This document shows, in pieces, positions 13,114 through 64,000 of a stretch of DNA of 64,000 nucleotides. This stretch comes from a bacterium (lineage in GTDB: Bacteria; Electryoneota; Electryoneia; Electryoneales; Electryoneaceae), in assembly GCA_963675295.2 (NCBI GenBank), contig CAXXKJ010000001.1, positions 32,043 to 96,042 of the forward strand, read 5' to 3'. The notes beneath the pieces were generated by a model. That model was not told where the DNA came from. It did not search any database and saw only the letters and a program-made list of their open reading frames with translations. Each line of letters begins with the position of its first letter. Position 1 is the first letter of the stretch. The position numbers were made by a program, and so were the translations under genes.

Positions 13114-13115
13114 TC

Positions 13116-15268: not shown

Positions 15269-15293
15269 CCTCTCCCGTATTCGCGTAACTGCA

Positions 15294-17422: not shown

Positions 17423-17452
17423 GTCGGTACGCGTTTGCCGCGAAATTGTTAG

Positions 17453-17490
17453 CGGAGACGGGTCCAATGGGCCTGTCTCCGTTGTTTTTT
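17453..17490 (+). terminator. rho-independent terminator
   Basis: CGGAGACGGG-tccaatgg-CCTGTCTCCG, a 10-bp stem with one G-U pair, followed by TTGTTTTTT. Confidence 0.8.
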
Positions 17491-17673
17491 CAGGGTTTCA
17501 GCAGACTTCCCGCAATCTCTCCTCCCAGTCTGCGACCTCATCGAATCCTTGTAATTCGCTTGCATCTAGCAGACCATCATCCAACTTTCTCAGACTGTCG
17601 TGGACTGGCACCGCGACAGGCGCGCGGAACCCCCTCCGTGCGGGCTGAATTTCGGGAAATGGGAGCAAAATTC

Positions 17674-21270: not shown

Positions 21271-21334
21271 CCGCGTTGTCGAGCCAACACGGGCAAGAGT
21301 CAGTAGGTCCGCGTCAGCAAGCTGACACGGGCAC
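21271..21334 (-). repeat. REP-B hairpin pair (inverted orientation relative to the 61.1-kb copies)
   Basis: The reverse complement of 21308..21334 is GTGCCCGTGTCAGCTTGCTGACGCGGA, identical to 61101..61127. The reverse complement of 21271..21295 is TGCCCGTGTTG-gctcga-CAACGCGG. The two copies are 38 nt apart, as in the pair at 61101/61139. Confidence 0.8.
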
Positions 21335-24796: not shown

Positions 24797-24999
24797 GTGT
24801 GATTCTGGTACTGCTCGGCGCGGGGCTGGTGGTCGCGCTGGTGTTTCTCGGCCTCTTCATCTGGGCCGTCAACTCCGGCCAGTACGACGATCCGGTGACT
24901 CCGGGCTGGCGCATCATTCTGGATGACATGAAAAAGAAAAAATCCAAGGATACCGGGAAGCATCTATCCAGGGAGGATAACGATGTCCCACAGCGGTGA
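24793..24999 (+). CDS. ccoS: cbb3 oxidase maturation protein CcoS/FixS
   Basis: 68 aa with a single TM helix followed by WAVNSGQYDD (the CcoS signature). Its start overlaps the ccoI stop. Confidence 0.88.
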   Translation: MSVILVLLGAGLVVALVFLGLFIWAVNSGQYDDPVTPGWRIILDDMKKKKSKDTGKHLSREDNDVPQR

Positions 25000-45873: not shown

Positions 45874-45884
45874 AGATGGCCTCG

Positions 45885-47147: not shown

Positions 47148-47150
47148 GGC

Positions 47151-48047: not shown

Positions 48048-49177
48048 CCCTCCTTCGGCTCTGCGTCAGCCGCTTCCGCCTTCTTCTTCGCACGCGAACT
48101 GGCGATTCCGACACCGATCGCCGCGCCGGCAAAACCACCGACGATACCCGTCGTGAGCGGATCAACACCGCCGCCCTTCTGGCCATCAACCAATGGATAC
48201 GCGTCCGGTGCGGTCTGCTCGTGGATGTGGACCACTTCGTACATGTCCATCTTGTACGGGAAGCTCGGTTCGACACAGCCAATACACGGACTGCCCGACC
48301 CGATGCACCAGTTCACCCCGCTGTTCCAACGACGGCGTGGGCAGTCGGCATGCGTCACCGGACCCTTGCAGCCCAGCTTGTAGAGGCACGCCTTGTCGCC
48401 GAAATTCTGTGCGAACTGACCCTTGTCGAAGTTGCCGCGGAACTCGCAGTTGTCGTGCATCAGCTTGCCGTAGAACGCCAGCGGACGGCCATGCTCATCC
48501 ACCTTCAGCATGTCCAGACCGCCGAGCAGCACCGTCGCCACCGTGCCGACAAACCAGTCCGGATGCGGCGGGCAACCGGGAACGTTCACGTACGGCGTGC
48601 TCATCCCCGCAGCCTTCATGTACTCGCCCACCGGCTGAATGCCAGTCGGATTCGGCGGAGCGGCGGGGATGCCGCCAAACGACGAACACGTCCCCATGTT
48701 GATCACCGCCATCGCCTTCGGGGCCAGCGCGTCAAAATGCTGTTTCAACGGAATGCCGTGCCCGTTGTGTTCGCCGACCTCGCAGTAAACGCCGTCGTCC
48801 TTTGTGGACAACGCACCCTCCATCACGAGCACGAACGAGCCGGGTTCGGCCTCCTTGTACTTGTCCAGCACGTCGATCACCTGCTGACCCTGCCCGGCCA
48901 TAACCGTGGCGTGGAACTGCAGGCTGACGTGCGCGCCCGGCAACACCTCACCGAGCAGCAAATCCTGTATCGTCGGGCTCAGGCTGTTCAGCAGCGACAC
49001 GGAGCAACCGGTACACGATCCCGCCGGCAGCCACAGCACGGGCAAATCCTTCACGGCCTGGGCGAACAGCTGGTTGAAGCCGGGAAGCCCGAGCACACTC
49101 ATGCCCGCTATCCCCGCGCTGCTCGTGCCTACCAGGTTCAGGAATGACCGGCGCGTGATTTCTTTTCTTTCGCCCAC
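48044..49177 (-). CDS. hybO: [NiFe] hydrogenase small subunit, group 1 (Tat signal, C-terminal anchor)
   Basis: Tat motif RRSFLNLVG. The proximal-cluster motif CTGCSVS is the standard type, not the six-Cys O2-tolerant type. The C-terminal hydrophobic anchor is GGFAGAAIGVGIA. Confidence 0.92.
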   Translation of the reverse strand: MGERKEITRRSFLNLVGTSSAGIAGMSVLGLPGFNQLFAQAVKDLPVLWLPAGSCTGCSVSLLNSLSPTIQDLLLGEVLPGAHVSLQFHATVMAGQGQQVIDVLDKYKEAEPGSFVLVMEGALSTKDDGVYCEVGEHNGHGIPLKQHFDALAPKAMAVINMGTCSSFGGIPAAPPNPTGIQPVGEYMKAAGMSTPYVNVPGCPPHPDWFVGTVATVLLGGLDMLKVDEHGRPLAFYGKLMHDNCEFRGNFDKGQFAQNFGDKACLYKLGCKGPVTHADCPRRRWNSGVNWCIGSGSPCIGCVEPSFPYKMDMYEVVHIHEQTAPDAYPLVDGQKGGGVDPLTTGIVGGFAGAAIGVGIASSRAKKKAEAADAEPKEG

Positions 49178-49192
49178 TGCATCCTCCTGGTT

Positions 49193-49708
49193 CTATGTCC
49201 TTGCAATTGCTTGTTCAGTCAACGCGGCCAGGGCGTCGTCAATCTCCGCCCGGACCAGCTCCAGCACTCGTGGCACCACACGCGCCACCGGTACGCTCAG
49301 CTCGTCGCCCCAGTCGATCACTCCCGGCTGGATGCCGAAAATCACCGCGCGCTCCGGCGCGTTCCCCTGCAGCGTCGTCATGTGCAACGTTTCCATCAGA
49401 CCCAGCTGATGAATCGAGTCGTAGCCGGTGAAATCCGGCGGGACATCATCCGGGGTGAAACGGAACAGGGTGCCCGGCTCACGGTTCGCGTCGACGGCAT
49501 CGATCACGATCACCGCCTTGCGGTCCGCCAGCACCGGCAGCAGGTCATAGCCTGCCGTGCCGCCGTCAAACAGCTCGACCTCCGCCGGGAATGCCTCCTG
49601 CATCAGCTGCTGGATGGCGTGCACCCCCACACCGTCATCCCGCTGAATCAGGTTGCCCACGCCGAGCACCAGAACCGGCGCCACACTCTGTCGTTCACCC
49701 GAATCCAT
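49193..49708 (-). CDS. hybD: hydrogenase maturation endopeptidase (HyaD/HybD family)
   Basis: GVGNLIQRDDGVG motif. The ATG at 49708 shares one base with the large-subunit stop (TGATG). Confidence 0.9.
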   Translation of the reverse strand: MDSGERQSVAPVLVLGVGNLIQRDDGVGVHAIQQLMQEAFPAEVELFDGGTAGYDLLPVLADRKAVIVIDAVDANREPGTLFRFTPDDVPPDFTGYDSIHQLGLMETLHMTTLQGNAPERAVIFGIQPGVIDWGDELSVPVARVVPRVLELVRAEIDDALAALTEQAIART

Positions 49709-51267
49709 CAGCTCACCACGAACTTGCCGAGATCGTTCTTTTTTCCATCCACGACATGAATCGCGCAGGCGAGGCACGGGTCGAACGAACGCACGATGCG
49801 AACCAGTTCGAATGGATTCTTCGCGTCCTTGATCCGTGTGCCTTCCATCGCCTGTTCGAACGGACCGGGCTGGCCCTTGTCGTCACGCGGGCCGCCATTC
49901 CACGTTGTCGGCACCACCGCCTGATAGTTCGCGATCTTCTTGCCCTTGACCGACACCCAGTGGCCCAACGCACCGCGCGGAGCGTCCGTGATGCCCATCC
50001 CTTCGCCTTCATCCGGGATGTCGTAGACCGCGCAGGACGGTTCCCCCGGCTTCAGCTCGAGCAACCAGTCCGCCATCGCGTCCGCCACGATCTTGCATTC
50101 GATCGCCCGCGCCGCGTGACGGCCGAGCGTCGATTGCAACGCGCCCGGGCCGGCGTTGAAATGGCCGAGCGTGTCGTTGACCAGCGAGACCGTCGGTTCG
50201 ACACCCTGCACGTACGCGTTCAACTGACGGGACAACGGGCCGACTTCGTAGACGTCGCCGTCGTACCGCGGCGATTTGAGCCACGAGTACGCGCCGTTCT
50301 TGCCCGGCGCGGCAACCGTTTCGCCCTTGCTCGGATGCAGGTGGGACTCGGAGGAGTACCAGGAATGGCGCACGTCCTCCGTGATCTTCGAGGGATCCAA
50401 CTGCTTCGGCTTGAGGTTCTTGATGTTCACCCGGCCGCCGGGTAGCATCCGCTTGCGCTTCGTCAGGTCGGGCTCGTTGTCCAGCTCGAAGACGCCGTAC
50501 GCCATGAAGTTGTCCGTGCCCCCGCCGATGCCGAAGTAATCGCTGTACACCTCCGCCACCGCGATCACATCCGCCAGGTACACGTTGTCGATGAAATAGC
50601 GCAGCTTCTCGAGCCGCCAACGGAAGTCGGCGATCTTGTCCACCGACACCTGTTCGGTGCACCCCCCCGGCACGATGGACATGTTGTGCGGCATGTGACC
50701 ACCGAAAATCGCCAGCATCTCCTGCGACACACGGCGCATATCCAGCGCCTGCACATAATGCTTCGTCGCCTCGATGTTGACCGCCTTCGGCAGACGGTAA
50801 TCCCCCTCATACCGCGGAACAAACGGTCCCAGCGATCCGCGGCCAATAAAGTCCGCGACCTGGTTCAGGTGCGGATCGTTGCCGCGATAGCCCGCTACCG
50901 CCGTCACGTCGACATAGTCCAACGCCGTCAGGTGGTAGAAATGCAGGATGTGGGATTGGATGAAGTTGGAGCCGAAGATCAGGTTGCGCAGCACACGGCC
51001 GTTGTGTGGGATCTGGTCGGCAATACCGAACGCCGAGTCCAGATTCAACGTTGATGCCGTGGAATGCGCGGATGGGCAGACACCACAGATCCGCTGGGTG
51101 ATGCGCTGGGCGTCCAACGGATTCCGGCCCTGCAGGACCTGTTCGATGCCACGCCAAAGAGTGCCGGAACTGCGCGCCTCCTTGACCACGCCTCCATCAA
51201 CAACCGCCTCGATCTTCAGGTGACCCTCAATCCGGGTCACGGGATCGATGACAATCGTAGTCGCCAT
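49708..51267 (-). CDS. hybC: [NiFe] hydrogenase large subunit, group 1
   Basis: ATG 51267 gives MATTIVIDPVTRIEGH. The N-terminal motif is RICGVCPSAH and the C-terminal motif is DPCLACAIH, followed by a 15-aa cleavable extension. Confidence 0.93.
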   Translation of the reverse strand: MATTIVIDPVTRIEGHLKIEAVVDGGVVKEARSSGTLWRGIEQVLQGRNPLDAQRITQRICGVCPSAHSTASTLNLDSAFGIADQIPHNGRVLRNLIFGSNFIQSHILHFYHLTALDYVDVTAVAGYRGNDPHLNQVADFIGRGSLGPFVPRYEGDYRLPKAVNIEATKHYVQALDMRRVSQEMLAIFGGHMPHNMSIVPGGCTEQVSVDKIADFRWRLEKLRYFIDNVYLADVIAVAEVYSDYFGIGGGTDNFMAYGVFELDNEPDLTKRKRMLPGGRVNIKNLKPKQLDPSKITEDVRHSWYSSESHLHPSKGETVAAPGKNGAYSWLKSPRYDGDVYEVGPLSRQLNAYVQGVEPTVSLVNDTLGHFNAGPGALQSTLGRHAARAIECKIVADAMADWLLELKPGEPSCAVYDIPDEGEGMGITDAPRGALGHWVSVKGKKIANYQAVVPTTWNGGPRDDKGQPGPFEQAMEGTRIKDAKNPFELVRIVRSFDPCLACAIHVVDGKKNDLGKFVVS

Positions 51268-51415
51268 AATTCGTACCCCGAGCAGATGAATGGTGTGTAA
51301 AAGAACCGCAGCCCGGAAAACCCAAAAAGACCCAACCGGGCCGGAACCGTGACGAATGCACACTCAATCTGTGGGATACGCCGATTTTCCGCAAGCAATC
51401 ACAAGTAGTTAACCG

Positions 51416-52164: not shown

Positions 52165-52716
52165 TCAAGCCAGTGACTGCAATGTATCCGGCCCGGTGTT
52201 GATGAGACGTAGTTCACGCATCGCGCCGGCGACGGTATGGAACGGAACCAGCACCATCTCAGAGTGATAGCTCGGACGTTTCCGTTTCCAGTCGGCCTGG
52301 GTGAACTGGCGGGAGACCGGGTGGTTGACGTACCAGTCCCGCCCGAACTCACGAAACACCGTCCGCAACGGCCGGAATGGCACCAGCGCAAACCGCCGCT
52401 TATTCGGCCAGATCCAGAGCACGTACTCGGTCAGCACATCCTCGCGCAATGTCCAGCCGACCACCGATTTTTCCACTGATGACCACGTTTCCAACGCCAG
52501 CCAGCCGACATAATTCCGCTGCGCCTTCACGTCAATCCCGATACGGGTGCCATCCCGAAGTACCACCCAGAAATCCACCCCCTTGCGATCTTCGGCAGGC
52601 GTGGACGGTTCAATCCGCGACATGGTGAGGAACTTCTGCCGCAACGCAAACCGCACCAACCGTGTCACCTGTTTGCTGCGGCTGTATGCAAGACACTTTC
52701 GGAACGAACTCATCAT
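52165..52716 (-). CDS. hypothetical protein with PD-(D/E)XK-like nuclease motif
   Basis: ATG 52716 lies 5 nt after GAAGGAGGG. The motif GVDFWVVLRDGTRIGIDVKAQ fits D-x14-D-x-K. I recognise no family. The upstream part of track ORF 52165..52932 crosses an AT-rich promoter-like patch. Confidence 0.55.
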   Translation of the reverse strand: MMSSFRKCLAYSRSKQVTRLVRFALRQKFLTMSRIEPSTPAEDRKGVDFWVVLRDGTRIGIDVKAQRNYVGWLALETWSSVEKSVVGWTLREDVLTEYVLWIWPNKRRFALVPFRPLRTVFREFGRDWYVNHPVSRQFTQADWKRKRPSYHSEMVLVPFHTVAGAMRELRLINTGPDTLQSLA

Positions 52717-52961
52717 CGGACCCTCCTTCGTTGCTGCACCGGAGTTGAGCAACTGCAGGGCCAATTCTCTTAGGGTTTTATTTATCAATAGGTTATGTAG
52801 AATCCGGGCCCGCTGGGCATGACCAACAAGATGTGCCCGCCGTGGCTCATCAACGACACTTGTGGGAGAAGCAACACTCAAGCGGATCCCGCAAAGCTGA
52901 CAGTTTGGCTCGCCATACTCGCTGCCGTACATTGCATTTTCCGTTCACACCGCGTGAGGTC

Positions 52962-52991
52962 TTGACAAACCGTCCGAGTCTGGTGTATTAT
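52962..52991 (+). promoter_or_regulatory. sigma70-like promoter (TTGACA-18 nt-TATTAT)
   Basis: TTGACA is at 52962..52967 and TATTAT at 52986..52991, ~48 nt upstream of the PPIase ATG. Confidence 0.45.
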
Positions 52992-53004
52992 GCAAACGTT
53001 TGCA
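52991..53004. promoter_or_regulatory. perfect 14-bp palindrome TGCAAACGTTTGCA (LacI/GalR-type operator-like)
   Basis: It overlaps the last base of the predicted -10 hexamer, has a central CG, and shares the 12-bp core GCAAACGTTTGC with 53508..53521. Confidence 0.45.
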
Positions 53005-53038
53005 TGGCGAGGGTGATCGTTCTTTTCTGGAGAACATC

Positions 53039-54775
53039 ATGCCGATCTCGACGGTTCAACACACGATGTCCAGCCGCAGAAGGCTTCCCCAAGCTTTGAC
53101 ACTTGCCCTCTGTCTGATCCCGCTGCTCGTCCTCTTCTCCTGCAATCGTGCCGACAAAAACGCAAACGAAATTGTCGCATTTGTCGGAAATTCTAAAATC
53201 ACAAAAGCGCAGTATGAGCAGAGATATCTCGACCTGACACAACTTCAGGGATTGCCCGCGAACGCCGACCTGCGCCAGGACCTACTCGCCGAGATGATTG
53301 ACGAAGAGGTGCTGCTCAACGCCGCCCGTCGGCAGCGGATGGACCATACCCCGGAAGCCGAACACCGCCGCAAGCTGATCGAACAGGCTCTGCTCCTCGA
53401 CCGCTACACCGAGCAGTTCATCCTCCCGGACATCAGCATCACCCGCGACGAGCTGGAAACGCTCTATATCCGTATGCAGACAACGGTTACGGCGCGCCAT
53501 CTGTATGCGCAAACGTTTGCGGAAGCACAAACCCTCCGTTCGCGGCTGCAAAACGGCGAGTCGTGGACCGCTCTTGCGACTGAGGTCTTCACCGATCCGG
53601 CGCTGCGAAACAGCGGCGGAAAACTGGACCGGTTCACCGTGGACGAGATGGACCAGGCGTTCGAGGAAGCGGCGTACACGTTGCCGCTGAACACCGTGTC
53701 CGAGCCGGTCAGGCTGAAGCACGGCTACAGCATCCTCGAGGTGCTCGACCGCAGCCGTCCGCCGATGATCACCGAGCAGCAGTTCCTCGAGAAGGAGGCG
53801 AACCTCGAAACGTATCTGTGCAGCCGGAAACGCACTGAGGCGACACGGTCGCACGCGGAAGCCGTACGCGATGAGCTGCAACTGGCCTTCAACGATAACA
53901 CGCTGGCCGCCGTCTACGACCGTTGGAATCTCGCGACAGACGGCGAAGGCCCGATCCTGCCGGCGTTGACCACCAATACGCCACCCAATCTGCTCAACCG
54001 CGAATTGCTGACCACCGCAAACGGCCCGATGACTGTCACGCAAGTGTTGACCACGTTGAGCAACGCCACAGCCACCGAACTCGGCTGGGTGGACACTCCT
54101 AACGCCCTCGCCGACCTGATCGCGGGGCTGCTGGCGCGTGACCGGATGCTTGCAACCGCCCGCGAACATCACCTCGACCAGGACGAAGCTTACACCCGTG
54201 CGGTCCGCTACGAGTTCGACACGTGGCTGTTGACCCAGGTCGAGGACGATATCCTCGCATCCACCGAAATCCCGGACGACAGCCTGCGCGCGTTGCTGGC
54301 CCGTGAGCACGACAGCTTCGCTCAGCCGGAGCGGATTGCACTGAGCGGCATCATCGTCGACTCACGCGCTGACGCGGACGCGGTCGAACGCGGCCTGCGT
54401 GACGGCAAACCCTTCGCACGGCTGGCGCGGGAATATTCGAGCAATGCAGACAACGCAGCCCATGGTGGCACACTCGGCCATTTCACACGCAAGGAACTCG
54501 GCCCGGAAGTCAGTGTATTGTGGAAGCTGCAGCCCGGTCAGTGGATTGGCCCTGTTGATCTGGATGCCACCCATTTCGGTTTCTTCCGCGTCGACAACCG
54601 GATTCCGGCCGAGCATCCAGCCTTTGACGACCTCCGCGACGAGCTGGTGACGGTTTACAAACAGCGCAACCGGCGCGCGCTGCTGAAGGATTTCGTCGCA
54701 CGCGAACGCGCGGATCTGGTGATCGAGGTACGCATGGAACGACTGGACGACATCCAACTGGCGGGGGTGTACTGA
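53039..54775 (+). CDS. SurA/PpiC-type peptidyl-prolyl isomerase lipoprotein (two parvulin-like domains)
   Basis: ATG 53039 follows GGAGA. Signal plus lipobox ...LIPLLVLFSC. Parvulin-like segments are ARHLYAQTF...GGKLDRFTVDEMDQAFEEAAY and a second one near GGTLGHFTRKELGPEV. Confidence 0.8.
   Translation: MPISTVQHTMSSRRRLPQALTLALCLIPLLVLFSCNRADKNANEIVAFVGNSKITKAQYEQRYLDLTQLQGLPANADLRQDLLAEMIDEEVLLNAARRQRMDHTPEAEHRRKLIEQALLLDRYTEQFILPDISITRDELETLYIRMQTTVTARHLYAQTFAEAQTLRSRLQNGESWTALATEVFTDPALRNSGGKLDRFTVDEMDQAFEEAAYTLPLNTVSEPVRLKHGYSILEVLDRSRPPMITEQQFLEKEANLETYLCSRKRTEATRSHAEAVRDELQLAFNDNTLAAVYDRWNLATDGEGPILPALTTNTPPNLLNRELLTTANGPMTVTQVLTTLSNATATELGWVDTPNALADLIAGLLARDRMLATAREHHLDQDEAYTRAVRYEFDTWLLTQVEDDILASTEIPDDSLRALLAREHDSFAQPERIALSGIIVDSRADADAVERGLRDGKPFARLAREYSSNADNAAHGGTLGHFTRKELGPEVSVLWKLQPGQWIGPVDLDATHFGFFRVDNRIPAEHPAFDDLRDELVTVYKQRNRRALLKDFVARERADLVIEVRMERLDDIQLAGVY
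53508..53521. promoter_or_regulatory. second perfect 14-bp palindrome CGCAAACGTTTGCG, inside the PPIase gene
   Basis: It has the same 12-bp core as 52991..53004 and lies 517 bp downstream of it. Confidence 0.35.
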
Positions 54776-54778
54776 CGC

Positions 54779-57553
54779 ATGAAATTGTTGCGATTCGTTG
54801 TGTTGCCCTGCCTGATCCTGCTGCTGGCGATCCTGATCGCAGGGCCGGTCCATGCTCAGACCAGCGGAAAGATCATCGGCACCGTCACCGACGACGAAAC
54901 TGGCGAACCGTTGCCAGGCGCGGCGGTGGTCGTTGAGGGGATGACCCTCGGCGCGTCCAGCGACATCGACGGCAGGTTCGTCATCCTCCGCATCCCGCCC
55001 GGCAACGTCACCCTGAAGGCGAGTTTCATCGGTTACAGCACGGTTGTCGTCGAGGATGTGCAGGTCCTCACGGATGTGACGTCGCATATCGAAATCGAGA
55101 TGACGCCGTCCGCGATCTCCGGCGAGGAAGTGGTGATCACCGCCGAGCGCCCGCTCGTGCGCCGCGACCAGACCTCGATGGAATCGCATGTCCGTGCCGA
55201 GGATCTCGACCGCATGCCGGTGGAAAATCTGGACGAAGTCATCGACCGCCAGGCCGGGGTTGTGCGCGGCCGGGACGGCGGCCTGCACATCCGTGGCGGG
55301 CGGGCTTCCGAGGTCAACTATCTGATCAACGGCATCAGCATCACCGACGATTACGACAAATCGCAGGCGTTCGACATTCACAATGAGGCCGTCGCCGAAC
55401 TGCAGGTGGTAAGCGGGGCGTTCAACGCTGAATACGGCAACGCAATGAGCGGTATCGTCAACATCACCACCAAGGGCGGCAGCAACGAGTGGCACGGGTC
55501 CGCCGAAATGCAGGCGGGCGATTATCTCAGCAGCCGCACCGACGTCTTCCCGAACATTGACGACCTCAGCGTCGCCTCCACCGGCACCCAAAGCGTCAGC
55601 CTCAGCGGACCGATCATTCGCGACAAGCTGACGTTCTTCATCTCCGGCAAGCAGCTTTACAACGAGGGCTACATCTACGGCTCCCGCTGGTACCTGCCGC
55701 AAGGCCGGGGGTACATGACCGAAGACAGCACAACCGTACTCACTCCCGGCGACAGCTCGTATGTCCCGATGCAACAGAGCCGTAACCAAAGCGGGCAAGC
55801 AACCTTGCACTGGTCGGTGACCCCGAAGCTGCAACTGAAAGCCGACCTGCTCGGCAGCCACTACCGGGGACGGTCGTACAACCACACCTACCGCTACAAC
55901 CCGGACGGGTATGGCTACAGCGAAAGCAACGGTTTCGCGGGCATTCTGAAGGGTACGTGGCTGTTCAACAAAAACACGTTCGCCGAATTGTCGTACGCCA
56001 ATCGATACAACGAATCCACGTACCAGCTCTACGACGATTCGCGCGACAGCCGTTATGTTCACCCTGATTCGGCGTTGACCGCCGGCTACACCTTCGCCAC
56101 CGCCGGAACCGACCTCTCGATCTTCAAGCGCAGCACGACCAGCAACCTCGCGAAGCTGGACGTGACCAGCCAGGTGACGTATTCGCATCAGCTCAAGGGT
56201 GGCCTGCAACTGCAGCTGGACGAGATCTACTACAACGACTACACGCTCGTGCCGAAGACGAAACCGTCCGGCGGGGAGATTGTCCCGTTTGTGCCGTCCA
56301 TCGAGGCCGCGACAACCACCAACCACGACCGGTACACCCGTGAGCCGGTCACCTTTGCCGCGTACCTGCAGGACAAGATTGAATACGAAAGCGTGGTGAT
56401 CAATGTCGGCCTGCGTTTCGACTGGTTTGACCCGCAGGGGCAGATTCCGGTAGATGAGCAGGACCCGAATGTCTACAACCCGTTGAAGCTGATCCACAAG
56501 TACCACGACCTCAACGGGGACGGTGTCATTGACCTCTCCGAACAGACCGGCGACAACCAGTACACGCTCGCCGAACGCCGGGCATTCTGGTATCGCGACA
56601 CGACACCGAAGTACCAGCTCAGTCCGCGTCTCGGTGTCGCCTACCCGATCACCGACCGGGGCATCATTCACTTCTCGTACGGCATCTTCCAGCAGATTCC
56701 GGAATACAGCCTGCTCTACAACGACGACGAACGCAAGCTGAGCGAAGCGGCGGACATTTACGGCCCGTTCGGCAATCCCGACCTCGAGCCGCAACGCACC
56801 ACGATGTACGAGCTCGGTCTGGCGCAGGAGTTGACCGACCAGCTCGCGATCAACATCACCGGTTTCCAGCGCGACATCCGCAACTGGATCAGTGCCAGCG
56901 CGCCGATCCCGACCAGCGTGGCGACGGTTTCTTACGTCACCTATGTCAACCGCGACCTCGCCACCGTGCGCGGCGTGACACTGGGCATGGAAGGCCGTGT
57001 CAGCGACCGGTTCTCCCTGACCGGTGACTACACCTTCCAGATCGCCCAAGGCACCAATTCCGCACCGGAAGACGAATACTGGGCGCAACTGGACGGTGCC
57101 GAACCGACCAAGGAGCTGACCCCGCTGAACTGGGATCAGCGCCACACGTTGAACGTCAACGCCTACTACGGCAGCGAATACTACGGAATTACCCTGCTCG
57201 GCCGATTCTCGTCCGGCCATCCTTACACCCCCGAGATCTTGACCGGGGAACGGTCGGGCAGGAGTATTATCGCCGGCCTCGCGGAAAACAGCCGCCGCAT
57301 GCCAAACCGCTTTACGATGGATCTGTACGCGTTCCGCAAGTTCGACGCCGGCATCGGCCAGGTCCGCCTGTCGCTGCAGGTAAAGAATCTGTTCGATTCC
57401 GCCAACCCGATAGACGTCTTCTACGACACCGGCCTCGCCGACTACACCATCAACCAGGATCTCGTGCTCACGGCGGACGATGGCTACTTCATCCAACCCG
57501 ATTACTACTCCGAACCGCGCTCGGTCTTGCTGGGGATCAGCTATGAATTCTAA
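54779..57553 (+). CDS. TonB-dependent-receptor-like outer-membrane barrel with CarboxypepD_reg-like N-terminal domain
   Basis: It has a signal peptide and the motif GKIIGTVTDDETGEPLPGAAVVVEG. A plug-like region (IRGGRASEVNYLINGISI) is followed by a long beta-rich region ending ...LGISYEF. Confidence 0.85.
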   Translation: MKLLRFVVLPCLILLLAILIAGPVHAQTSGKIIGTVTDDETGEPLPGAAVVVEGMTLGASSDIDGRFVILRIPPGNVTLKASFIGYSTVVVEDVQVLTDVTSHIEIEMTPSAISGEEVVITAERPLVRRDQTSMESHVRAEDLDRMPVENLDEVIDRQAGVVRGRDGGLHIRGGRASEVNYLINGISITDDYDKSQAFDIHNEAVAELQVVSGAFNAEYGNAMSGIVNITTKGGSNEWHGSAEMQAGDYLSSRTDVFPNIDDLSVASTGTQSVSLSGPIIRDKLTFFISGKQLYNEGYIYGSRWYLPQGRGYMTEDSTTVLTPGDSSYVPMQQSRNQSGQATLHWSVTPKLQLKADLLGSHYRGRSYNHTYRYNPDGYGYSESNGFAGILKGTWLFNKNTFAELSYANRYNESTYQLYDDSRDSRYVHPDSALTAGYTFATAGTDLSIFKRSTTSNLAKLDVTSQVTYSHQLKGGLQLQLDEIYYNDYTLVPKTKPSGGEIVPFVPSIEAATTTNHDRYTREPVTFAAYLQDKIEYESVVINVGLRFDWFDPQGQIPVDEQDPNVYNPLKLIHKYHDLNGDGVIDLSEQTGDNQYTLAERRAFWYRDTTPKYQLSPRLGVAYPITDRGIIHFSYGIFQQIPEYSLLYNDDERKLSEAADIYGPFGNPDLEPQRTTMYELGLAQELTDQLAINITGFQRDIRNWISASAPIPTSVATVSYVTYVNRDLATVRGVTLGMEGRVSDRFSLTGDYTFQIAQGTNSAPEDEYWAQLDGAEPTKELTPLNWDQRHTLNVNAYYGSEYYGITLLGRFSSGHPYTPEILTGERSGRSIIAGLAENSRRMPNRFTMDLYAFRKFDAGIGQVRLSLQVKNLFDSANPIDVFYDTGLADYTINQDLVLTADDGYFIQPDYYSEPRSVLLGISYEF

Positions 57554-60500
57554 GCGAACACATCGGCTGTGGATGATCGCCTGCGGACTGCTGCTGACCC
57601 TGACGGTGGCCACCTTCGCACAACCGGAGGACCACATTCCCTCCGATCAGCGGGGACGGTCGGACCTGCGCCGCTACAGCAACATGGCGGGGAATTCGCT
57701 GCGCGCATCGGTGTTCAACACCGGCCTTTCCGGCCATCCGAACGAATGGCCCGAGTCGATCACCTACGAGTACCCGAAGAATACCGGCCGCGTCTACATC
57801 TCGATTGTCGGCATCTGGCTCGGCGGTGAAGTCACCGACGAGAACGGCGACCTGATCAAAATGATCGACATGCCGATGTGGCGTGAAAGCCCGAGCGGCG
57901 ATTCGTGGACGATGGAACCGATCCAGGGCTTCCTCAACCCGTCCTCGACCGATATCGCCCGCAGTGACGATCCGGACAGCTGGCCCCCGTTTTCCGAAGG
58001 CGGCTGGCGCGACAAACGGGACGACCCCAACGATCCCGGCTGGGTCGGATCGTGGAACGGTTTCTTCGGCAAGGACATTTTCAACGCGGACGTCGAGTTC
58101 TACTACCGCGCCGGGGATGATAGCTACGACCGGTACGAGTACATTCCGGACGAAACCGATCCCAGCCGCGCCGGACTTGGCTACCTGATGGATGTGCGCA
58201 CACTCGCCTGGACCCAGGTCCTCATCAGCGACGTCATTTTCTTCGTGCACGACATCAAGAATGACGGCACCAAGCGCATCCCGAAGGCGTCCTTCCTGAT
58301 CTTCCTCGCGGATTATGTCGGCGGGGATGGCACCGACGACGAACCGTACGTCGACCTGCAAACCGACACGGCGTTCCTCACCGACCTCGACCGCATCGGC
58401 ACCGAGGAGTTCGGCAGCGATCCGGTGGGCGTGGCGTCGATCCGTTACCTCGAAACACCGGGCAACCAGGTGGACGGCATCGACAACGACGGCGACGCCG
58501 ACTACCACAGCGAACTCATCTCGCAGATCGACGGCGACCCGGAGGTGCGTGTCCCGCTGTTCACAGACACCGATTTCACCTCGCGCCACATCAACGAAGG
58601 CCAGTCGATCGTCCTGATCGATGAGGATGACTACAGCCGGATCATTGTCGAGTATCCGGTCGGTGGTGGAACTGTCGTCAGCCAGGGCCGCGAAATCGCG
58701 CTGCCCGCGGGTGGGATCACGTTGACCGAAGCCGAGGAAGCGAACTCGTTCGACGACGACCTCGACGGCCTGATCGACGAACGCGAATCGCTGCACCTTA
58801 CCCGTTTTGATGAGATCAGCGGCACCGAGCGCCCGGTCCGCTACATCAACTACCTCTCGTTCGCGGTCGGGGACACGATCAAGCGCGGCTTTGTCGTCGC
58901 CGGAACCGATGCCGAGCTGGATTACGCCAACGTCGCGCCGATGATTGACGAATCCCGCGACGATGGCTTCGACAACGACGGCGACTGGGACCTGTTCACC
59001 AACGACACCGGCCTCGACGGCGTTCCCGACACCGGCGACGAAGGCGACGGGGACGGGCGCCCGACCTCCGGCGCCGGAACCGACTTCCCCGGCGAAGCGA
59101 ACATCGACAAGACCGATGTCACTGAAACCGACCTGATCGGCCTCACCGCCGCCTCGCAGGTGCAGGTGGGGCAGGTTTCGTACGGCGGAGCGGACGACAT
59201 CCTCTGGGACCGCTTCATGGTCCCCGGCCAGTTCGAGCTGCCACGTCCCACCGGCGAGTACGACACCTTCGTCTCCAGCGGCTACTTCCCGGTCGAACCC
59301 GGTGAACGGCAACGCATGGCGATCAGCGTCGCCATCGCCGCCGGTGGCATCAACAAGAACGCCGACATTCAGAGCGTGATCGCGAAGCAGGAACGCGCGA
59401 AGGAAGCGTACGAGGTGGACTACCAGTTCGCCCAGGCGCCGATCCGGCCGACCGTGCGCGCCGTACCGGGCGATGGACGCGTCACCCTCTACTGGGACAC
59501 CGACGCCGAGCAGTCGACCGACCGCTACATCGAGAGCATTGGCGGCACGCCGTACGATTTCGAGGGCTATCGCGTCTACCGTTCGACCGATGCCGCGATG
59601 GAAGACGCACGCGTTGTCACCGACGCCGACGGCATCCCGATCCTGCTGCGGCCAATCGCGCAGTACGACCTCGCGGATGGTATCACCGGCCTGCACCCGA
59701 CCGACATCAACGGTGCCATGTTCGATCTCGGCGACGATACCGGCCTGCAGTACAGCTTCACCGATTACGATGTCATCAACGGGCAGCGCTACTTCTACGC
59801 CGTCACCGCCTACGACTTCGGCTATGCCGCCGCGAACATCGCGCCGAGCGAAAGCTCGATCCAGATCGACGTCGATCAGCAAGGCAATGTCGAACACAGC
59901 CGGAATGTCGCCGTCGTCCGGCCTGCCGCACCGGCAGCCGGGTATGTCGCGCCGAATGTCGAGTGGTTTACGCACACCTCCGGCGGCGCAACCGGACTGA
60001 TCGAGGTTTCGGAGATCGTGGATCCGTCCGAGATTCTCGACGGTCACGTCTACGAAGTCACCTTCCGCGACACCGTCATCGCCGGTGACCCGAGCGACAC
60101 ACTGACCACGCGCGACTTCACGCTGCGTAATGTCACCGAGGATCGCGTTGTCCTCGAGAACAGCCCATACTTCAACGAAGGCGATCCGGTCCCGGTTACC
60201 GAAGGCTTCCAGCTCGCGCTGGCCAATGAGCGCCTCGTGCAGCTCGACGCCGAGCGCTCAGGCTGGACCGATGACGACGTTTTCCCGGCCTCGTTCGCGC
60301 CGGCGACGTTCATCGGCGTGCGTGGCGAACGACGGCCCAACGATTACCGCATTATCGTCGGCGAGGGCACGCAAACCGCGTCCTACGACACCTCGATAGG
60401 CATCGCGTCGCTGCCCTCCGTGGACGTCAACATCCACGTCGAAAACATCATCAGCGGCGATTCGGTCAAGTTCGCCTACGCCGATCTGTACGGCCAGGAC

Positions 60501-61058
60501 GGCCTGTTCAACACCAATCCGGACAACAGCGACGAAACGGACATCCTGTTCCTGCTCGAACCGGACGGCGCGGGTGGGCTGACCTACACGTGGCAGATCA
60601 ACCTGCTCGCCGCGGCGAACCATCGCAACCCGGAACCGGGCGACACGCTCGAATTCCGCCTGCGGAAGCCGTTCCTGTCGTCCGACACGTACCAGTTCGA
60701 GGTGAACGCGTCCACCATTTCACGCGCGGCGGCAAAGGAGGATCTCGCCGATATCCGGGTTGTGCCGAACCCGTACGTCGTCACCGAAGTCTGGGAGCCG
60801 AACAACCCGTACAGCAGCGGACGCGGCCCGCGTGAGATCCATTTCATCAACCTGCCGAAACGCTGCACCATCCGCATCTTCAACGTGGAAGGCGTGCTGA
60901 TCGACACCATCGATCACGAAGCCGCCGCCGAAAACGGCACCGCGATCTGGGATGTGTTGAGCCGTGAGGGTCTGTCGATTTCGTACGGGATCTACATCTA
61001 CCACGTCGACGCGCCCGGGGTTGGCGAAAAGACCGGAACCTTCGGAGTCATCAAATGA
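57543..61058 (+). CDS. 1171-aa secreted protein: Ca-binding Asp-rich repeats + Fn3-like domain + divergent T9SS-like C-terminal domain
   Basis: ATG 57543 overlaps the preceding gene by 11 nt. Signal peptide MNSKRTHRLWMIACGLLLTLTVATFAQ. Thrombospondin-type-3-like repeats include DNDGDADY, DDDLDGLIDE, DNDGDWD and DTGDEGDGDG. The segment GDGRVTLYWD...YRVYRS is Fn3-like. The C-terminus reads IRVVPNPYV...CTIRIFNVEGVLI...YGIYIYHV...GTFGVIK. Confidence 0.85.
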   Translation: MNSKRTHRLWMIACGLLLTLTVATFAQPEDHIPSDQRGRSDLRRYSNMAGNSLRASVFNTGLSGHPNEWPESITYEYPKNTGRVYISIVGIWLGGEVTDENGDLIKMIDMPMWRESPSGDSWTMEPIQGFLNPSSTDIARSDDPDSWPPFSEGGWRDKRDDPNDPGWVGSWNGFFGKDIFNADVEFYYRAGDDSYDRYEYIPDETDPSRAGLGYLMDVRTLAWTQVLISDVIFFVHDIKNDGTKRIPKASFLIFLADYVGGDGTDDEPYVDLQTDTAFLTDLDRIGTEEFGSDPVGVASIRYLETPGNQVDGIDNDGDADYHSELISQIDGDPEVRVPLFTDTDFTSRHINEGQSIVLIDEDDYSRIIVEYPVGGGTVVSQGREIALPAGGITLTEAEEANSFDDDLDGLIDERESLHLTRFDEISGTERPVRYINYLSFAVGDTIKRGFVVAGTDAELDYANVAPMIDESRDDGFDNDGDWDLFTNDTGLDGVPDTGDEGDGDGRPTSGAGTDFPGEANIDKTDVTETDLIGLTAASQVQVGQVSYGGADDILWDRFMVPGQFELPRPTGEYDTFVSSGYFPVEPGERQRMAISVAIAAGGINKNADIQSVIAKQERAKEAYEVDYQFAQAPIRPTVRAVPGDGRVTLYWDTDAEQSTDRYIESIGGTPYDFEGYRVYRSTDAAMEDARVVTDADGIPILLRPIAQYDLADGITGLHPTDINGAMFDLGDDTGLQYSFTDYDVINGQRYFYAVTAYDFGYAAANIAPSESSIQIDVDQQGNVEHSRNVAVVRPAAPAAGYVAPNVEWFTHTSGGATGLIEVSEIVDPSEILDGHVYEVTFRDTVIAGDPSDTLTTRDFTLRNVTEDRVVLENSPYFNEGDPVPVTEGFQLALANERLVQLDAERSGWTDDDVFPASFAPATFIGVRGERRPNDYRIIVGEGTQTASYDTSIGIASLPSVDVNIHVENIISGDSVKFAYADLYGQDGLFNTNPDNSDETDILFLLEPDGAGGLTYTWQINLLAAANHRNPEPGDTLEFRLRKPFLSSDTYQFEVNASTISRAAAKEDLADIRVVPNPYVVTEVWEPNNPYSSGRGPREIHFINLPKRCTIRIFNVEGVLIDTIDHEAAAENGTAIWDVLSREGLSISYGIYIYHVDAPGVGEKTGTFGVIK

Positions 61059-61100
61059 AACGTCTCCGTCGAACCCTGGATCGTTCCCGTGTGGAAACAA

Positions 61101-61295
61101 GTGCCCGTGTCAGCTTGCTGACGCGGATAGGCATCAACGTGCCCGTGTTAAAAAACTTGCAAACGCGGATGATCCCTGCTGGCGAAGCCATCAGGGGCAC
61201 ATCAAAGGCAAGTGCCCGTGTCAGCTCGCTGACGCGGACCAACCGGATCTCGAATAGTCGTGAGTCAAGTGCCCGTGTTTGCTTGCAAACGCGGA
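61101..61295 (+). repeat. four REP-B hairpins arranged as two pairs
   Basis: R1 is at 61101..61127, R2 at 61139..61169, R3 at 61212..61238 and R4 at 61269..61295. The flanks GTGCCCGTGT and ACGCGGA are conserved while the inner stems vary: CAGC/GCTG (R1, R3), TTGC/GCAA (R4), and a partly disrupted left arm in R2. Confidence 0.85.
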
Positions 61296-62323
61296 TGATC
61301 CGAAACGCGCTCTTTCTGATTGCATTGACCATGCTGACGTTCGTTGCCGGGCTACCGGTCAGAGCCGAAACCCGGTCCAAGGTCGGAACCTCTGCCGCGG
61401 TTTTCCTGCGCATCCCGGCAGGCGCACGCGGCAGCGCGCTCGGCAGCGCATACACCTCGATGGCGACAGACGCCTCGGTGATGTTCTGGAATCCCGGCGG
61501 AATTGCCCGTTTGCCCGGCTACCAACTGACGTTCGACCACACCGACTGGCTGCCCGGTATCGACTACAGCTACATGGGCGCGTTCATGCCGGTCACGCCG
61601 GACATTTCGATGGGGGTGACCGCCGCATACCTGTCCACCGAAGCGATGGACATCACCACCCCGGCCTACCCGATGGGCACCGGCGAAACCTATGACGCCG
61701 GCAGCCTCGCCGTCGGCGGGTCCATCGGCGCACGCCTGACCGACCGCTTCAGCATCGGCGGCACCGTCAAGTTCATCCAGGAACGCATCTACAATTCCAC
61801 CGCGAACGGGGTCGCGTTTGACGTCGGCACGTTGTTCGACACCCCGTTCCACGGCATCCGTTTCGGTGTCGCAATCTCGAATGTCGGCACCCGGCTGCGG
61901 ATGAACGGCGAAGATCTGAACACCCGCGCCGATGTCGCCCCTGACCAGTCGGGCAACAACGAAACCGTCGTCAGTCAGCTCAAAACCGATAGCTTCGATC
62001 CGCCGATGGTCCTGAGGCTGGGTCTGTCCGGGGAAGCGTGGGAGAGCGATCAGGTACGGGTGACATGGCTGCTGGACGGCGTCAATCCCAACGACAACGC
62101 GCCGAGCATGAACCTCGGTCTCGAAGTCGGCGTGATCAACGACGCGCTCAACCTGCGCGCCGGATACAACGACCTGTTCCTCGACGAATCGATCCGGGGC
62201 TGGACCTTCGGCGCCGGGGTGAACTACGCCACCGGCGGACGCGTCTTCCGGTTCGACTACGCGTACCAGGTGTTCGAGTATCTCGGCGGCGTGAATCGCT
62301 TTACGCTCAGTTTCCAGTTGTAG
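61295..62323 (+). CDS. PorV/PorQ-family-like outer-membrane beta-barrel
   Basis: ATG 61295 gives the signal peptide MIRNALFLIALTMLTFVAGLPVRA. It is followed by GTSAAVFLRIPAGARGSALGSAYTSMATDASVMFWNPGG, which matches my memory of the PorV N-terminal signature. The rest has a beta-strand-rich alternating pattern. Confidence 0.65.
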   Translation: MIRNALFLIALTMLTFVAGLPVRAETRSKVGTSAAVFLRIPAGARGSALGSAYTSMATDASVMFWNPGGIARLPGYQLTFDHTDWLPGIDYSYMGAFMPVTPDISMGVTAAYLSTEAMDITTPAYPMGTGETYDAGSLAVGGSIGARLTDRFSIGGTVKFIQERIYNSTANGVAFDVGTLFDTPFHGIRFGVAISNVGTRLRMNGEDLNTRADVAPDQSGNNETVVSQLKTDSFDPPMVLRLGLSGEAWESDQVRVTWLLDGVNPNDNAPSMNLGLEVGVINDALNLRAGYNDLFLDESIRGWTFGAGVNYATGGRVFRFDYAYQVFEYLGGVNRFTLSFQL

Positions 62324-62457
62324 GAGAGTGGTGCCGGATTGTGAGATTCAGATCTCGCATCACATGAACTCGACAAGCTGAACACAACCTATAGAACCGG
62401 GATCATGGCGTTCACCGCCGGTCCCCGGAACGACACATTTGCATGGGGAGAAGACTC

Positions 62458-64000
62458 ATGACATCGCTTCGGTCCACCGCCCTGGTCGCCCTCGCACTGC
62501 TCGTGCTGCTGACGATGTCCGCGTACGCGCAGGTCAATGTGACCGTCCGTTTCAACGCGGCAACCGTGCTCGACACACTCGACACGCATCATTTCGTGCA
62601 GATTCGCGGGGAAGTCACCAGCGGCAATAACACTCTGCCCGATGGCAACACGATCACCTGGGACAACGCGTCCGACCTGATCATGGACAACGTCGGCGGC
62701 GACTACTGGGAAATCACCTTCCAGATGGAAGAGGACGACACGCTGCTGTACAAGTTCTGGACCGGGTTCGATGAAAACACGGGCACGTCCGTCGTCTGGG
62801 ATGGCTGGGAAGGTCCGCTGAGCAACAGCTTCGGCGTCGCCACGGACAACCGTGTTTTCATCAGCGGCAGCGAAGACACCGTGCTCGACATCCAGTACTA
62901 CAACAGCTCCGAAAGCACGAAAGAACAGTACTGGCGTCCCTATGTCGAGGAACCGGATTCGACCGCGTTCTACTTCCGGGTCAACATGGCCGGCTATGAA
63001 GAGATCGCCGAGTTTGATCCGGACACCGAAGGCCCGGTCACGGCCTACGGCAGCACACCCCTCGCACCGAACGACAACTGGGACCTGCCGTTTGTCACGC
63101 TCACCCGTGAATCGACCACCGGCGTCGCCGCCTCCTTCTGGTCCGGCGTGGTCCAGGTCGCGAATGACGATCTCACCGCCGGTGAAACGCAAAATTACAA
63201 GTTTGTCTTCTACGACGAGAACACGAACGAAGTCTGGGAAAACAACATCAGCAACCGTTGGTTCGACATTTCCGACATGATCGCGGACGGCGAGGCGGAC
63301 ACCACGCTGCACTGGGTGTGGTTCGATGATCGCGCGCCGACCGGCCAGGAGTTGATCGAGACAACGGTCACATGGCTCGTCGATCCGGGCGCGTTAGAAG
63401 AACTCGGCTTCTTCGACCAGACCGTCGGCGACCAGTTGCTGATCTCCGGCCCGAACGGCTGGACCATCCCGGACCAGGCGATCGAAGTGATTTACCAGCC
63501 GCTGCTCGGCTACTGGATCGCGTCCGAGGACTTCACCCGTCAACCGGGTGACGTGCTGCAATACAAGTACGTCGTGCTGTACGATTCGTCCCGCGTGGAC
63601 ACGCTCAGCCCGAACTACTTCCCCGGCCTGCCCGGCGTGGAACTGTGGGAAGAACCGAGCTCAACCGGCGGCGCGAACCGGCTCTACACCATCCTCGACC
63701 AGGATGAACAGACCGTTCCCGGCGACTACAACTACGATTACCAGTTCTACAGCGGCATTCCGCCGGAGGGCGTGATCGATGTGGACGAAGACATTCACTT
63801 CAGCATCGACATGGAGCCGGCCACCGATCCAGACGTCAACACCACCAACCCGTTGTTCCGGCCTGGTGTTGACACCGCGTACCTCTACTTCGAAAGCCCG
63901 GTGCTGATGCTGTCGCAGGGGTTGCCGGCGTACGAACACACCGTTGATCTCGAAGACCTGGATGGCGACGGCGTTTACACCACGACGATGGAGTTCGGGG
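62458..64000 (+). CDS. secreted protein with repeated CBM20-like beta-sandwich modules (3' end beyond window)
   Basis: ATG 62458 follows GGGGAGAAG. Signal peptide MTSLRSTALVALALLVLLTMSAYAQ. I checked by hand that the frame is open to position 64000. The recurring pattern (V.F.V...G.....W......M......W......LLYKF / QYKYVV) resembles starch-binding-type modules. It is absent from the ORF track because it has no stop in the window. Confidence 0.7.
   Translation, partial: MTSLRSTALVALALLVLLTMSAYAQVNVTVRFNAATVLDTLDTHHFVQIRGEVTSGNNTLPDGNTITWDNASDLIMDNVGGDYWEITFQMEEDDTLLYKFWTGFDENTGTSVVWDGWEGPLSNSFGVATDNRVFISGSEDTVLDIQYYNSSESTKEQYWRPYVEEPDSTAFYFRVNMAGYEEIAEFDPDTEGPVTAYGSTPLAPNDNWDLPFVTLTRESTTGVAASFWSGVVQVANDDLTAGETQNYKFVFYDENTNEVWENNISNRWFDISDMIADGEADTTLHWVWFDDRAPTGQELIETTVTWLVDPGALEELGFFDQTVGDQLLISGPNGWTIPDQAIEVIYQPLLGYWIASEDFTRQPGDVLQYKYVVLYDSSRVDTLSPNYFPGLPGVELWEEPSSTGGANRLYTILDQDEQTVPGDYNYDYQFYSGIPPEGVIDVDEDIHFSIDMEPATDPDVNTTNPLFRPGVDTAYLYFESPVLMLSQGLPAYEHTVDLEDLDGDGVYTTTMEFG

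Follow-up and report, generated by a model that had tools for sequence, protein, structure and literature searches.

The 64,000-nucleotide stretch analyzed here (contig CAXXKJ010000001.1 of assembly GCA_963675295.2, positions 32,043 to 96,042, from a bacterium of the family Electryoneaceae; below, the window) ends in five open reading frames (ORFs), which run head to tail on the plus strand from 53039 to the window end (64000). We conclude that these genes probably belong to a glycan import cassette that does without SusD. A giant protein would use a type IX secretion system (T9SS) for its export and be anchored on a PorV-like barrel of its own, and the operon would be regulated by sugar through a LacI-type repressor. 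We put the probability of this reading at roughly 0.6. To the same degree, we expect that a three-gene cassette, encoding a TonB-dependent receptor (TBDR), the giant and the PorV-like barrel, takes the place of the SusC/SusD pair in lineages of the Fibrobacterota-Chlorobiota-Bacteroidota (FCB) group outside the Bacteroidia. All five ORFs were recovered on the plus strand where a preliminary description of this DNA had placed a co-directional cluster. They are listed together with the C-terminal domain (CTD) of the giant.

53039..54775, plus strand: gene 1, lipoprotein peptidyl-prolyl isomerase (PPIase); two parvulin domains, N-terminal domain SurA-like
54779..57553, plus strand: gene 2, TBDR whose N-terminal architecture is SusC-like, with CarboxypepD_reg, TonB-box-like motif, plug and barrel
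57543..61058, plus strand: gene 3 (the giant), secreted protein of 1,171 aa, founding member of a large uncharacterized family
60756..61055, plus strand: C-terminal beta-sandwich of the giant (residues 1072-1171), putative divergent T9SS CTD, nearest to the CTDs of PorZ and PorU
61295..62323, plus strand: gene 4, outer-membrane beta-barrel of the PorV/PorQ family (NF033709)
62458 (or 62443)..64000, plus strand: gene 5, 5' part (514 codons), secreted protein resembling carbohydrate-binding modules (CBMs), running past the window end

Species-representative genomes were scanned for the cassette and gave at least 80 loci; all counts below refer to the loci listed. They come from KSB1, Calditrichota, Ignavibacteriota, Rhodothermales/Balneolaceae, Marinimicrobia and Stahlbacteria/WOR-3, the remaining ones from Krumholzibacteriia, Eisenbacteria and a few Bacteroidota metagenome-assembled genomes (MAGs), i.e., from at least eight phylum-level groups in total. 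Across these loci, identity to the window giant ranges from 30% to 64%. The genes of TBDR, giant and PorV-like barrel are adjacent and co-directional in essentially all 80 listed loci with enough flanking sequence, and gene order is thus conserved far beyond close relatives; two Ignavibacteria loci (L029 and L053) have the order TBDR, PorV-like, giant. The full five-gene order (PPIase, TBDR, giant, PorV-like, and a protein of ~690 aa with a type-A T9SS CTD) is identical in three genomes (L001, L002, L004), and PPIase and gene-5 types are present in subsets of loci only. Further, when the three core proteins are scored for similarity to their window counterparts, the scores rise and fall together (Spearman 0.85-0.91, n = 46). 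Tandem cassettes were found in L009 and L042, two giant-like genes apparently share one cassette in L058, and three MAGs (CAZKFR01, KSB1 JW960 and JW948) have two cassette copies each. Because of this adjacency, the covariation and the tandem and multiple copies, we regard the three-gene cassette, which forms a multi-paralogue family, as the unit of inheritance. No name or published description of the combination was found in full-text literature searches.

Gene 2 qualifies as a TBDR by sequence, with a plug, a beta-barrel and a TonB-box-like motif. The Pfam matches are CarbopepD_reg_2 (71.4 bits), PF07715 Plug (43.8 bits, cutoff 23.9) and PF25183 OMP_b-brl_4 (41.2 bits, cutoff 30); plug and barrel thus lie above their cutoffs, which agrees with the TBDR-like barrel proposed before. 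Cassette TBDRs of relatives also match PF00593, and both the TonB-box-like motif GEEVVITAE and a C-terminal Phe are conserved across 67 cassette TBDRs. The SusC/RagA model TIGR04056 was not reached (92 bits, residues 31-236 only, vs. a cutoff of 368.25), and the best sequence matches in PDB, a SusC homologue (8aa4) and RagA, cover the N-terminus and plug only.

The gene upstream, gene 1, matches PF00639 Rotamase (80.9 bits), Rotamase_2 (59.5 bits) and SurA_N_3 (31.1 bits, cutoff 27.2), and a lipobox-like Cys (LFSC) is visible in its translated N-terminus (...LVLFSC). The assignment as a SurA-like PPIase lipoprotein is supported in this way, and a probable periplasmic chaperone is predicted. 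The protein remains below every NCBIfam equivalog cutoff of the SurA/PrsA/PpiD type, e.g., SurA with 40.5 vs. 394. In approximately 25 of 80 loci, a homologue is encoded upstream of the TBDR, and several more loci have one at another position.

These two genes bear on another explanation, namely that the locus is a dedicated export or surface-assembly module, in which the TBDR serves as conduit for the giant, the PPIase as chaperone and the PorV-like protein as shuttle, any link to carbohydrate-active enzymes (CAZymes) being secondary. In Myxococcus, the protease PopC is secreted only if Oar is present, a TBDR whose N-terminal architecture is similar. The match of gene 2 to PF25183 OMP_b-brl_4, the tightly spaced or overlapping TBDR and giant genes and the frequent linkage of the PPIase gene would suit such a module. 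However, the giant has a T9SS-type CTD and the genome makes T9SS cargo, which would render a second exporter unnecessary, and conservation of the plug and the TonB-box-like motif is that of importers. Moreover, both the gene content and the LacI regulation are those usually seen in loci for catabolic uptake, and cassettes multiply within genomes beside different sets of glycoside hydrolases (GHs), as uptake systems do. We consider export through the TBDR very improbable.

The spacing of the TBDR and giant genes was checked separately, as they had been described as overlapping by 11 nt. This holds if ATG 57543 is the start of the giant, which gives a normal signal peptide (MNSKRTHRLW-MIACGLLLTLTVATFA/Q), and the genes of L004, an 84%-identical relative, are called with the same 11-nt overlap. 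It does not extend to L001 and L002, where the genes are separated by 14 and 68 nt, respectively. The database copy of the giant, P0001, is 1,161 aa long with 99% of the query covered, and may have been called from a Met 10 codons downstream, abolishing the overlap of genes 2 and 3. Close spacing of TBDR and giant genes is general across relatives; the overlap itself is not.

The giant begins with a type-I signal peptide without lipobox, and no Pfam family was found for it at E ≤ 0.01. In the database homologue search, more than 799 close full-length homologues were detected, with members from KSB1, Calditrichaeota and Melioribacteraceae being 55-60% identical. All named homologues are "hypothetical protein" and none carries a Pfam domain, which is in line with the earlier statement that the gene combination has no assigned function. 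An exhaustive search with the giant resulted in 3,768 clusters at 50% identity (E ≤ 1e-3), including 524 at E ≤ 1e-30; a PDB sequence search with the family profile gave no match. In an alignment of 67 sequences, residues 50-320, which end with lE.PGn..DgIDNDgD, the Asp-rich residues 466-535 and an FN3-like module (640-760) are conserved, and residues 320-465 (gap-rich) and 800-1050 are variable. The C-terminal ~100 residues form the best conserved segment of the family (mean top-residue frequency 0.6-0.7). The calcium binding proposed before would derive from motifs of the DxDxDG type (DGIDNDGDAD, DGFDNDGDWD) that can be read from the sequence, and no family model backs them as calcium-binding.

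The structure of the giant was predicted with AlphaFold2. A first run with 44 close homologues reached a mean predicted local distance difference test (pLDDT) of 68, and the fold search with it was uninformative; it was replaced after adding ~100 distant paralogues. Using the resulting 134-sequence alignment, a compact, mostly beta-stranded, multi-domain model was obtained (pLDDT 88.9, predicted template modeling score 0.83), with CTD strands at pLDDT >85, one loop excepted. A Foldseek search of this model against PDB found no global relative (template modeling (TM) score on the query ≤0.09). The top match is PorZ (5m11, probability 0.97), followed by strings of FN3/Ig domains, and no functional clue was found for the N-terminal 600 residues.

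In a further explanation, the giant would be an enzyme that founds a new family of glycoside hydrolases or lyases, or else a calcium-dependent polymer-binding adhesin, the barrel being merely its anchor and the TBDR not coupled to it. Many acidic residues are invariant (E185, D192, E304, E413, D469, E470, E518, E528, E656), the predicted structure appears compact and confident with no known fold matching the N-terminal 600 residues, and FN3-like modules are frequent in CAZymes. On the other hand, most of the invariant acids lie within DxDxDG-type loops, and a single activity is hard to reconcile with neighbors as different as amylase, GH53, GH66, GH10, GH9, GH16 and CBM9/esterase. The strict adjacency to the TBDR gene and the lockstep divergence would be left unexplained as well. 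An enzyme or adhesin of this kind is, thus, distinctly unlikely.

The C-terminus of the giant had been described as resembling T9SS CTDs, yet divergent from them, and this is borne out by consistent matches below cutoff to several T9SS CTD models (CHU_C, PorZ, PorU and type-A). For the type-A CTD (TIGR04183/PF18962, cutoffs 23/27 bits), the window giant scores 13.3 bits, and 13 of 15 distant members match below cutoff, with a best E-value of 4e-5 (18.9 bits, L011); Pfam Por_Secre_tail is matched by 5 of 12 close members at E ≥ 0.034. Similar results were obtained for the type-B CTD: the window giant reaches 14.6 bits with PF13585 CHU_C (cutoff 27 bits), 11 of the 12 close giants match below threshold (best E-value 2.7e-4), TIGR04131 is matched by one close (of 12) and one distant member (of 15), and two distant homologues carry a precomputed PF13585 match. 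The CTD regions of the NCBIfam models PorZ and PorU are matched by all 12 close giants and, among the 15 distant ones, by 14 (PorZ, best E-value 5.9e-7) and 13 (PorU), in each case below the cutoffs.

Seven type-A CTD (Por_Secre_tail) proteins are encoded in the same window. The giant C-terminus was compared with the window's own array of such CTDs using hhalign (E-value 6e-4, probability 28%). This array, seven co-directional genes at 5235-19548, is worth an observation of its own. Its proteins end in type-A T9SS CTDs (last 80 residues) that share 66-80% identity with the first copy, the mean column identity being 84%, and the N-terminal parts differ (an esterase domain in 7493-9256, FG-GAP repeats in 15608-17422, others without Pfam domain). 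Judged by their sequences, the array CTDs look homogenized relative to the remainder of the proteins.

According to a review, the two T9SS proteins with CTDs that escape cleavage are PorZ and PorU, which are retained on the PorQ and PorV barrels, respectively, and type-B cargo genes cluster with those of cognate PorP/SprF anchors (PMC10202324). Two ideas liken the giant to these proteins. The giant was considered as a PorU-like sortase on account of its size, which is similar to that of Porphyromonas gingivalis PorU (~1,158 aa), and of the gene order porU-porV. This candidate was dropped: the full-length PorU sortase model NF033707 gave 15.7 bits vs. 420 and matched the CTD portion only, and no Cys or His is invariant across the giant family outside the CTD, so that a conserved Cys/His pair is missing.

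According to the second idea, giant and barrel form a locus-specific T9SS attachment complex, a pair like PorZ/PorQ or PorU/PorV, which receives the type-A CTD cargo of the locus (gene 5 and GH enzymes), fixes it near the TBDR and does not bind glycan. The giant CTD is indeed nearest to PorZ and PorU, PorZ 5m11 is the top structural match, and with the PorQ model the barrel obtains a higher score than with the PorV model. In addition, in 41 of 54 loci the product of the next gene has a type-A CTD, and the giant is highly conserved whatever the GH context. However, only the CTD resembles PorZ (model positions 688-737 of 757) and PorU (1025-1076 of 1095), with TM ≤0.12, and the full-length PorZ model NF052228 gave 21.6 bits vs. 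260, again for the CTD portion only. The absence of conserved Cys/His outside the CTD makes a PorU-type cysteine peptidase unlikely, and the constant TBDR neighborhood of an attachment factor would be unexplained. We therefore regard an attachment complex as unlikely.

For the product of 61295..62323, gene 4, the PorV-like assignment was confirmed by the PorV/PorQ family model NF033709, which is matched with 169.8 bits (cutoff 90) by residues 32-341 over model positions 1-325 of 326. The protein scores below the equivalog models PorQ (NF033711, 90.3 vs. 220), PorV (NF033710, 53.7 vs. 250) and PorV2 (NF052325, 40.7 vs. 325) and has a weak sequence match to Flavobacterium johnsoniae PorV (6h3i_F). 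It is a member of the PorV/PorQ family and none of the named orthologues. A homologue adjoins the giant gene in nearly every locus with sufficient flank, and the PorV-like barrel is probably the dedicated anchor of the giant.

The spacer between the giant and PorV-like genes contains one further element.

61095..61309, plus strand: four hairpin repeat copies (GTGCCCGTGT...ACGCGGA), resembling repetitive extragenic palindromic (REP) elements, which fill the space separating the giant gene from the PorV-like gene

Four copies of the ~28-nt hairpin unit, GTGCCCGTGTCAGCTTGCTGACGCGGA with variants, lie in this 237-nt spacer, whose predicted RNA fold is unusually stable (z-score −3.75), and the last copy adjoins the ATG of the PorV-like gene. 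More copies were found on the minus strand at 21287-21334, 24135-24144 and 62777-62786, another intergenic region being included. The repeat is absent from all 84 related loci, and Rfam gave no match for 52-64 kb. It looks like a genome-specific REP-like element, which may affect mRNA stability or translation of the PorV-like protein.

The genes around the cassette were examined for hints of a function. Gene 5 matches CBM_20 (PF00686) with 23.8 bits for the whole protein (cutoff 23.3), no single domain passing. Its alignment with a 695-aa protein of L004, which ends in FlgD_ig/Por_Secre_tail, scores 909 bits, and counterparts in relatives are ~690 aa long with a type-A CTD at the end. Judged by these homologues, gene 5 probably encodes a surface glycan-binding protein with a type-A CTD. 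In the related loci, the co-directional gene directly after the PorV-like gene (n = 54) encodes a protein with Por_Secre_tail in 41 cases, CBM20 in 15 (best E-value 5e-24), X25 in six, CBM48 in five and CBM53 in three; in single cases, a GH66, GH94, GH9, GH10 or GH16 catalytic domain is present at this position. Among the second and third genes downstream (n = 85), alpha-amylase (14), GH53 (5), GH5 (3), GH3 (2), GH66 (2), rhamnosidase (3) and sodium:solute symporters (4) were found. A GDSL-lipase and TPR protein also recurs there (8 of 85, e.g., L002 17694-19595) and may be an accessory esterase. The upstream genes (n = 106) encode type-A CTD proteins (17), LacI-family regulators (10), alpha-amylases (8) and ABC sugar permeases (6), as well as GH97 and CBM9 proteins; GH2 genes also occur in the flanks.

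The preliminary description had reported no SusD-like partner, and we did not find one either: the giant has no Pfam family, and SusD is not among the 25 commonest Pfam families of 245 flanking ORFs in the 80 loci. Consequently, the locus does not fit the PUL definition of PULDB, a susC-susD tandem, as the gene after the TBDR gene has no Pfam family.

Upstream of gene 1, two putative regulatory elements were detected.

52962..52991, plus strand: sigma-70-like promoter TTGACA-N18-TATTAT (11 of 12 consensus positions; promoter scan), 48 nt upstream of gene 1
52990..53005, no strand assigned: perfect 16-bp palindrome ATGCAAACGTTTGCAT, LacI-family operator-type site, abutting the −10 hexamer

The form of ATGCAAACGTTTGCAT is what we take to be a LacI-family operator. 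Both promoter hexamers are kept in L004 in spite of diverged surrounding DNA, and a 24-nt block made up of the −10 hexamer and the palindrome is identical between the window and L004 (L004 site 5446-5461). The degenerate pattern TGNAANCGNTTNCA has 16 matches in 1.5 Mb (window and loci), compared to ~1.4 expected by our own estimate; in five cases (window, L004, L017, L022 and L034), a match immediately precedes the cassette's first gene. LacI genes adjoin cassettes in related loci, e.g., L002. No LacI-family gene was found among the window ORFs scanned, and the neighboring ORF 52165-52932 (minus strand) has no Pfam match. The predicted operator and promoter would fit a sugar-responsive catabolic operon.

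Since the 84%-identical relative has different genes upstream, the promoter is considered the left border of the cassette. The module directly upstream in the window is unrelated to the cassette: 44368-51363 (minus strand) encodes the large and small subunits of an NiFe hydrogenase, partners resembling NrfC and NrfD, and a TPR-thioredoxin protein, and 33969-36254 (minus strand) encodes HypF. A DDE transposase (42606-44111; DUF772 and DDE_Tnp_1_6) marks an insertion sequence element, which has the hydrogenase cluster on one side and the gene of an M32 carboxypeptidase on the other. A single 722-aa ORF at 24983-27151 has both COX1 (CcoN-like) and FixO (CcoO) domains and would be a fused cbb3-type oxidase subunit I/II.

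An orthologous cassette is present in a cultured organism, Melioribacter roseus P3M-2, whose MROS_0964 falls in the 90%-identity cluster of P0099, 56% identical to the window giant. The CAZyme table of this genome lists GH5 (Mros0960) and GH53 (Mros0961) on one side of MROS_0964 and GH35 (0967), GH43 (0968), GH2 (0969), GH42 (0970) and GH2 (0971) on the other (PMC3534657). MROS_0964 is thus located within a galactan/arabinogalactan CAZyme cluster. A second M. roseus cassette, L053, is preceded by genes of an acetylesterase and a CBM9-CTD protein. In L004, the locus continues downstream with GH53-CTD, GH53 and GH2 genes. By orthology with L004, L001 and M. roseus Mros0960-0971, the window copy probably serves beta-1,4-galactan or arabinogalactan.

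A nutrient-uptake context is indicated by the CTD proteins encoded next to the PorV-like gene in 41 of 54 loci, the CAZyme neighbors, the LacI regulators, the operator and the M. roseus cluster. The preliminary description had favored a module for surface assembly or secretion over a locus for nutrient uptake. CAZyme flanks and operator contradict this rejection of uptake, and a narrower secretion part stands, as giant and gene 5 are probable T9SS cargo.

Taking these results together, the glycan import cassette might work as follows. The operon would be transcribed from the promoter at 52962 once a LacI-family repressor leaves the overlapping operator, as sequence and conservation suggest. 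The parvulin lipoprotein would chaperone these large proteins in the periplasm, aiding their folding or transit. The TBDR would act as a TonB-energized importer of oligosaccharides, a substrate suggested by its neighbors; GH enzymes with CTDs would release these oligosaccharides and the CBM-CTD protein would bind them. The giant is predicted to be exported by Sec and to cross the outer membrane through the T9SS via its C-terminal beta-sandwich. Its CTD would stay uncleaved and dock on the cassette's own barrel, by analogy with PorZ-PorQ, PorU-PorV and type-B cargo with PorP/SprF; CTD similarity, the extreme conservation of the CTD and the strict adjacency of the giant and barrel genes point to such docking. 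Positioned next to the TBDR, the giant would be its surface partner, i.e., a capture platform or lid analogous to SusD and surface glycan-binding proteins, which is the least supported step. Conserved modules of the giant would dock partners and variable inserts would face the ligand, and the alternation of conserved and variable segments agrees with this role. Finally, gene 5 and downstream GH proteins with ordinary type-A CTDs, as present in relatives, would supply surface-attached binding proteins and enzymes. A more far-reaching claim is that the trio constitutes an unrecognized SusD-independent glycan "utilisome" in use in most FCB phyla outside the Bacteroidia (KSB1, Calditrichota, Ignavibacteriota, Rhodothermota/Balneolales, Marinimicrobia, WOR-3, Krumholzibacteriota), with a T9SS-delivered giant of ~130 kDa and novel fold gating or feeding the TBDR from its own barrel, to which an uncleaved CTD would tie it permanently. 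We put this forward tentatively, as a possibility we rather doubt.

Several observations weigh against a SusD-independent glycan import cassette as proposed here. Every curated CTD cutoff is failed by the giant, and core T9SS genes of this genome were not seen in the 64-kb window. The fold search against PDB gave no carbohydrate-binding or SusD-like match for the giant. Shared descent would by itself be enough to make the similarity scores covary. L001 has a GH53 context and L002 an amylase context, yet the identity of their giants to the window giant is ~56-57% in both cases. Since they are about equally similar, the giant is unlikely to be the main determinant of specificity, which weakens the SusD analogy and suggests a generic structural role rather than ligand specificity. 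No GH gene is visible in the window; as it ends inside gene 5, the GH genes of this locus are deduced from relatives. Further, the M. roseus genome paper names Mros0761-0759 as SusC, SusD and SusE in a starch operon (PMC3534657); the SusD and SusE so named may be true Sus proteins or another giant/PorV-like pair. With a SusCDE operon reported in the same organism, the cassette would be no simple replacement of SusCD.

Compared with known systems, the cassette resembles SusC/SusD (RagA/RagB) in several respects: its TBDR has a CarboxypepD_reg domain, a TonB-box-like motif and a plug, the gene of a large surface partner directly follows, GH and CBM genes and sugar regulators surround it, and several paralogous copies occur per genome. 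In contrast to SusD, the giant comprises 1,171 aa with no SusD Pfam family, a type-I signal peptide, a mostly beta-stranded model and a CTD-like end. Furthermore, the third obligatory gene, encoding the PorV-like barrel, has no SusCD counterpart, the surface proteins of cassette loci are T9SS cargo instead of lipoproteins, and the TBDR remains below the SusC/RagA model cutoff. With T9SS cargo/anchor pairs (PorZ-PorQ, PorU-PorV, SprB-SprF), the cassette shares a giant with CTD encoded next to its own PorV-like barrel; unlike these, the giant is unrelated to PorZ, PorU and SprB outside the CTD, and the pair is tied to a TBDR gene and glycan catabolism, mainly outside Bacteroidia. Oar-type TonB-dependent transporters of Myxococcus have the same N-terminal domain order and the PF25183 barrel match, but the cassette is found in a context of CAZymes and LacI, and the neighboring cargo has its own T9SS signal. 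Precedents thus exist for a SusC-like importer paired with a surface protein and for T9SS cargo that has a cognate anchor of the PorV-like type; none was found for the fusion of these two halves into one conserved cassette, built around an unannotated protein family of novel fold.

Polysaccharide capture in the FCB group is understood almost entirely via SusC/SusD, tools predicting polysaccharide utilization loci (PULs) are keyed to the susCD pair, and T9SS biology is little studied outside Bacteroidia. In one MAG study, susCD was scarce in CAZyme clusters of Ignavibacteriales and absent from those of Ca. Kapabacteria (PMC10576277). The idea can be tested in cultured M. roseus P3M-2, which carries the orthologous cassette around MROS_0964. 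If it is true, the cassette would provide a marker for glycan-utilization loci in MAGs of KSB1, Calditrichota, Marinimicrobia and Rhodothermales, groups that matter for carbon turnover in sediment and ocean, and thousands of "hypothetical" proteins of 1,100-1,300 aa would be given a role. Dedicated anchors of the PorV-like type would be a new class in T9SS biology, and type IX secretion would be coupled directly to nutrient import.

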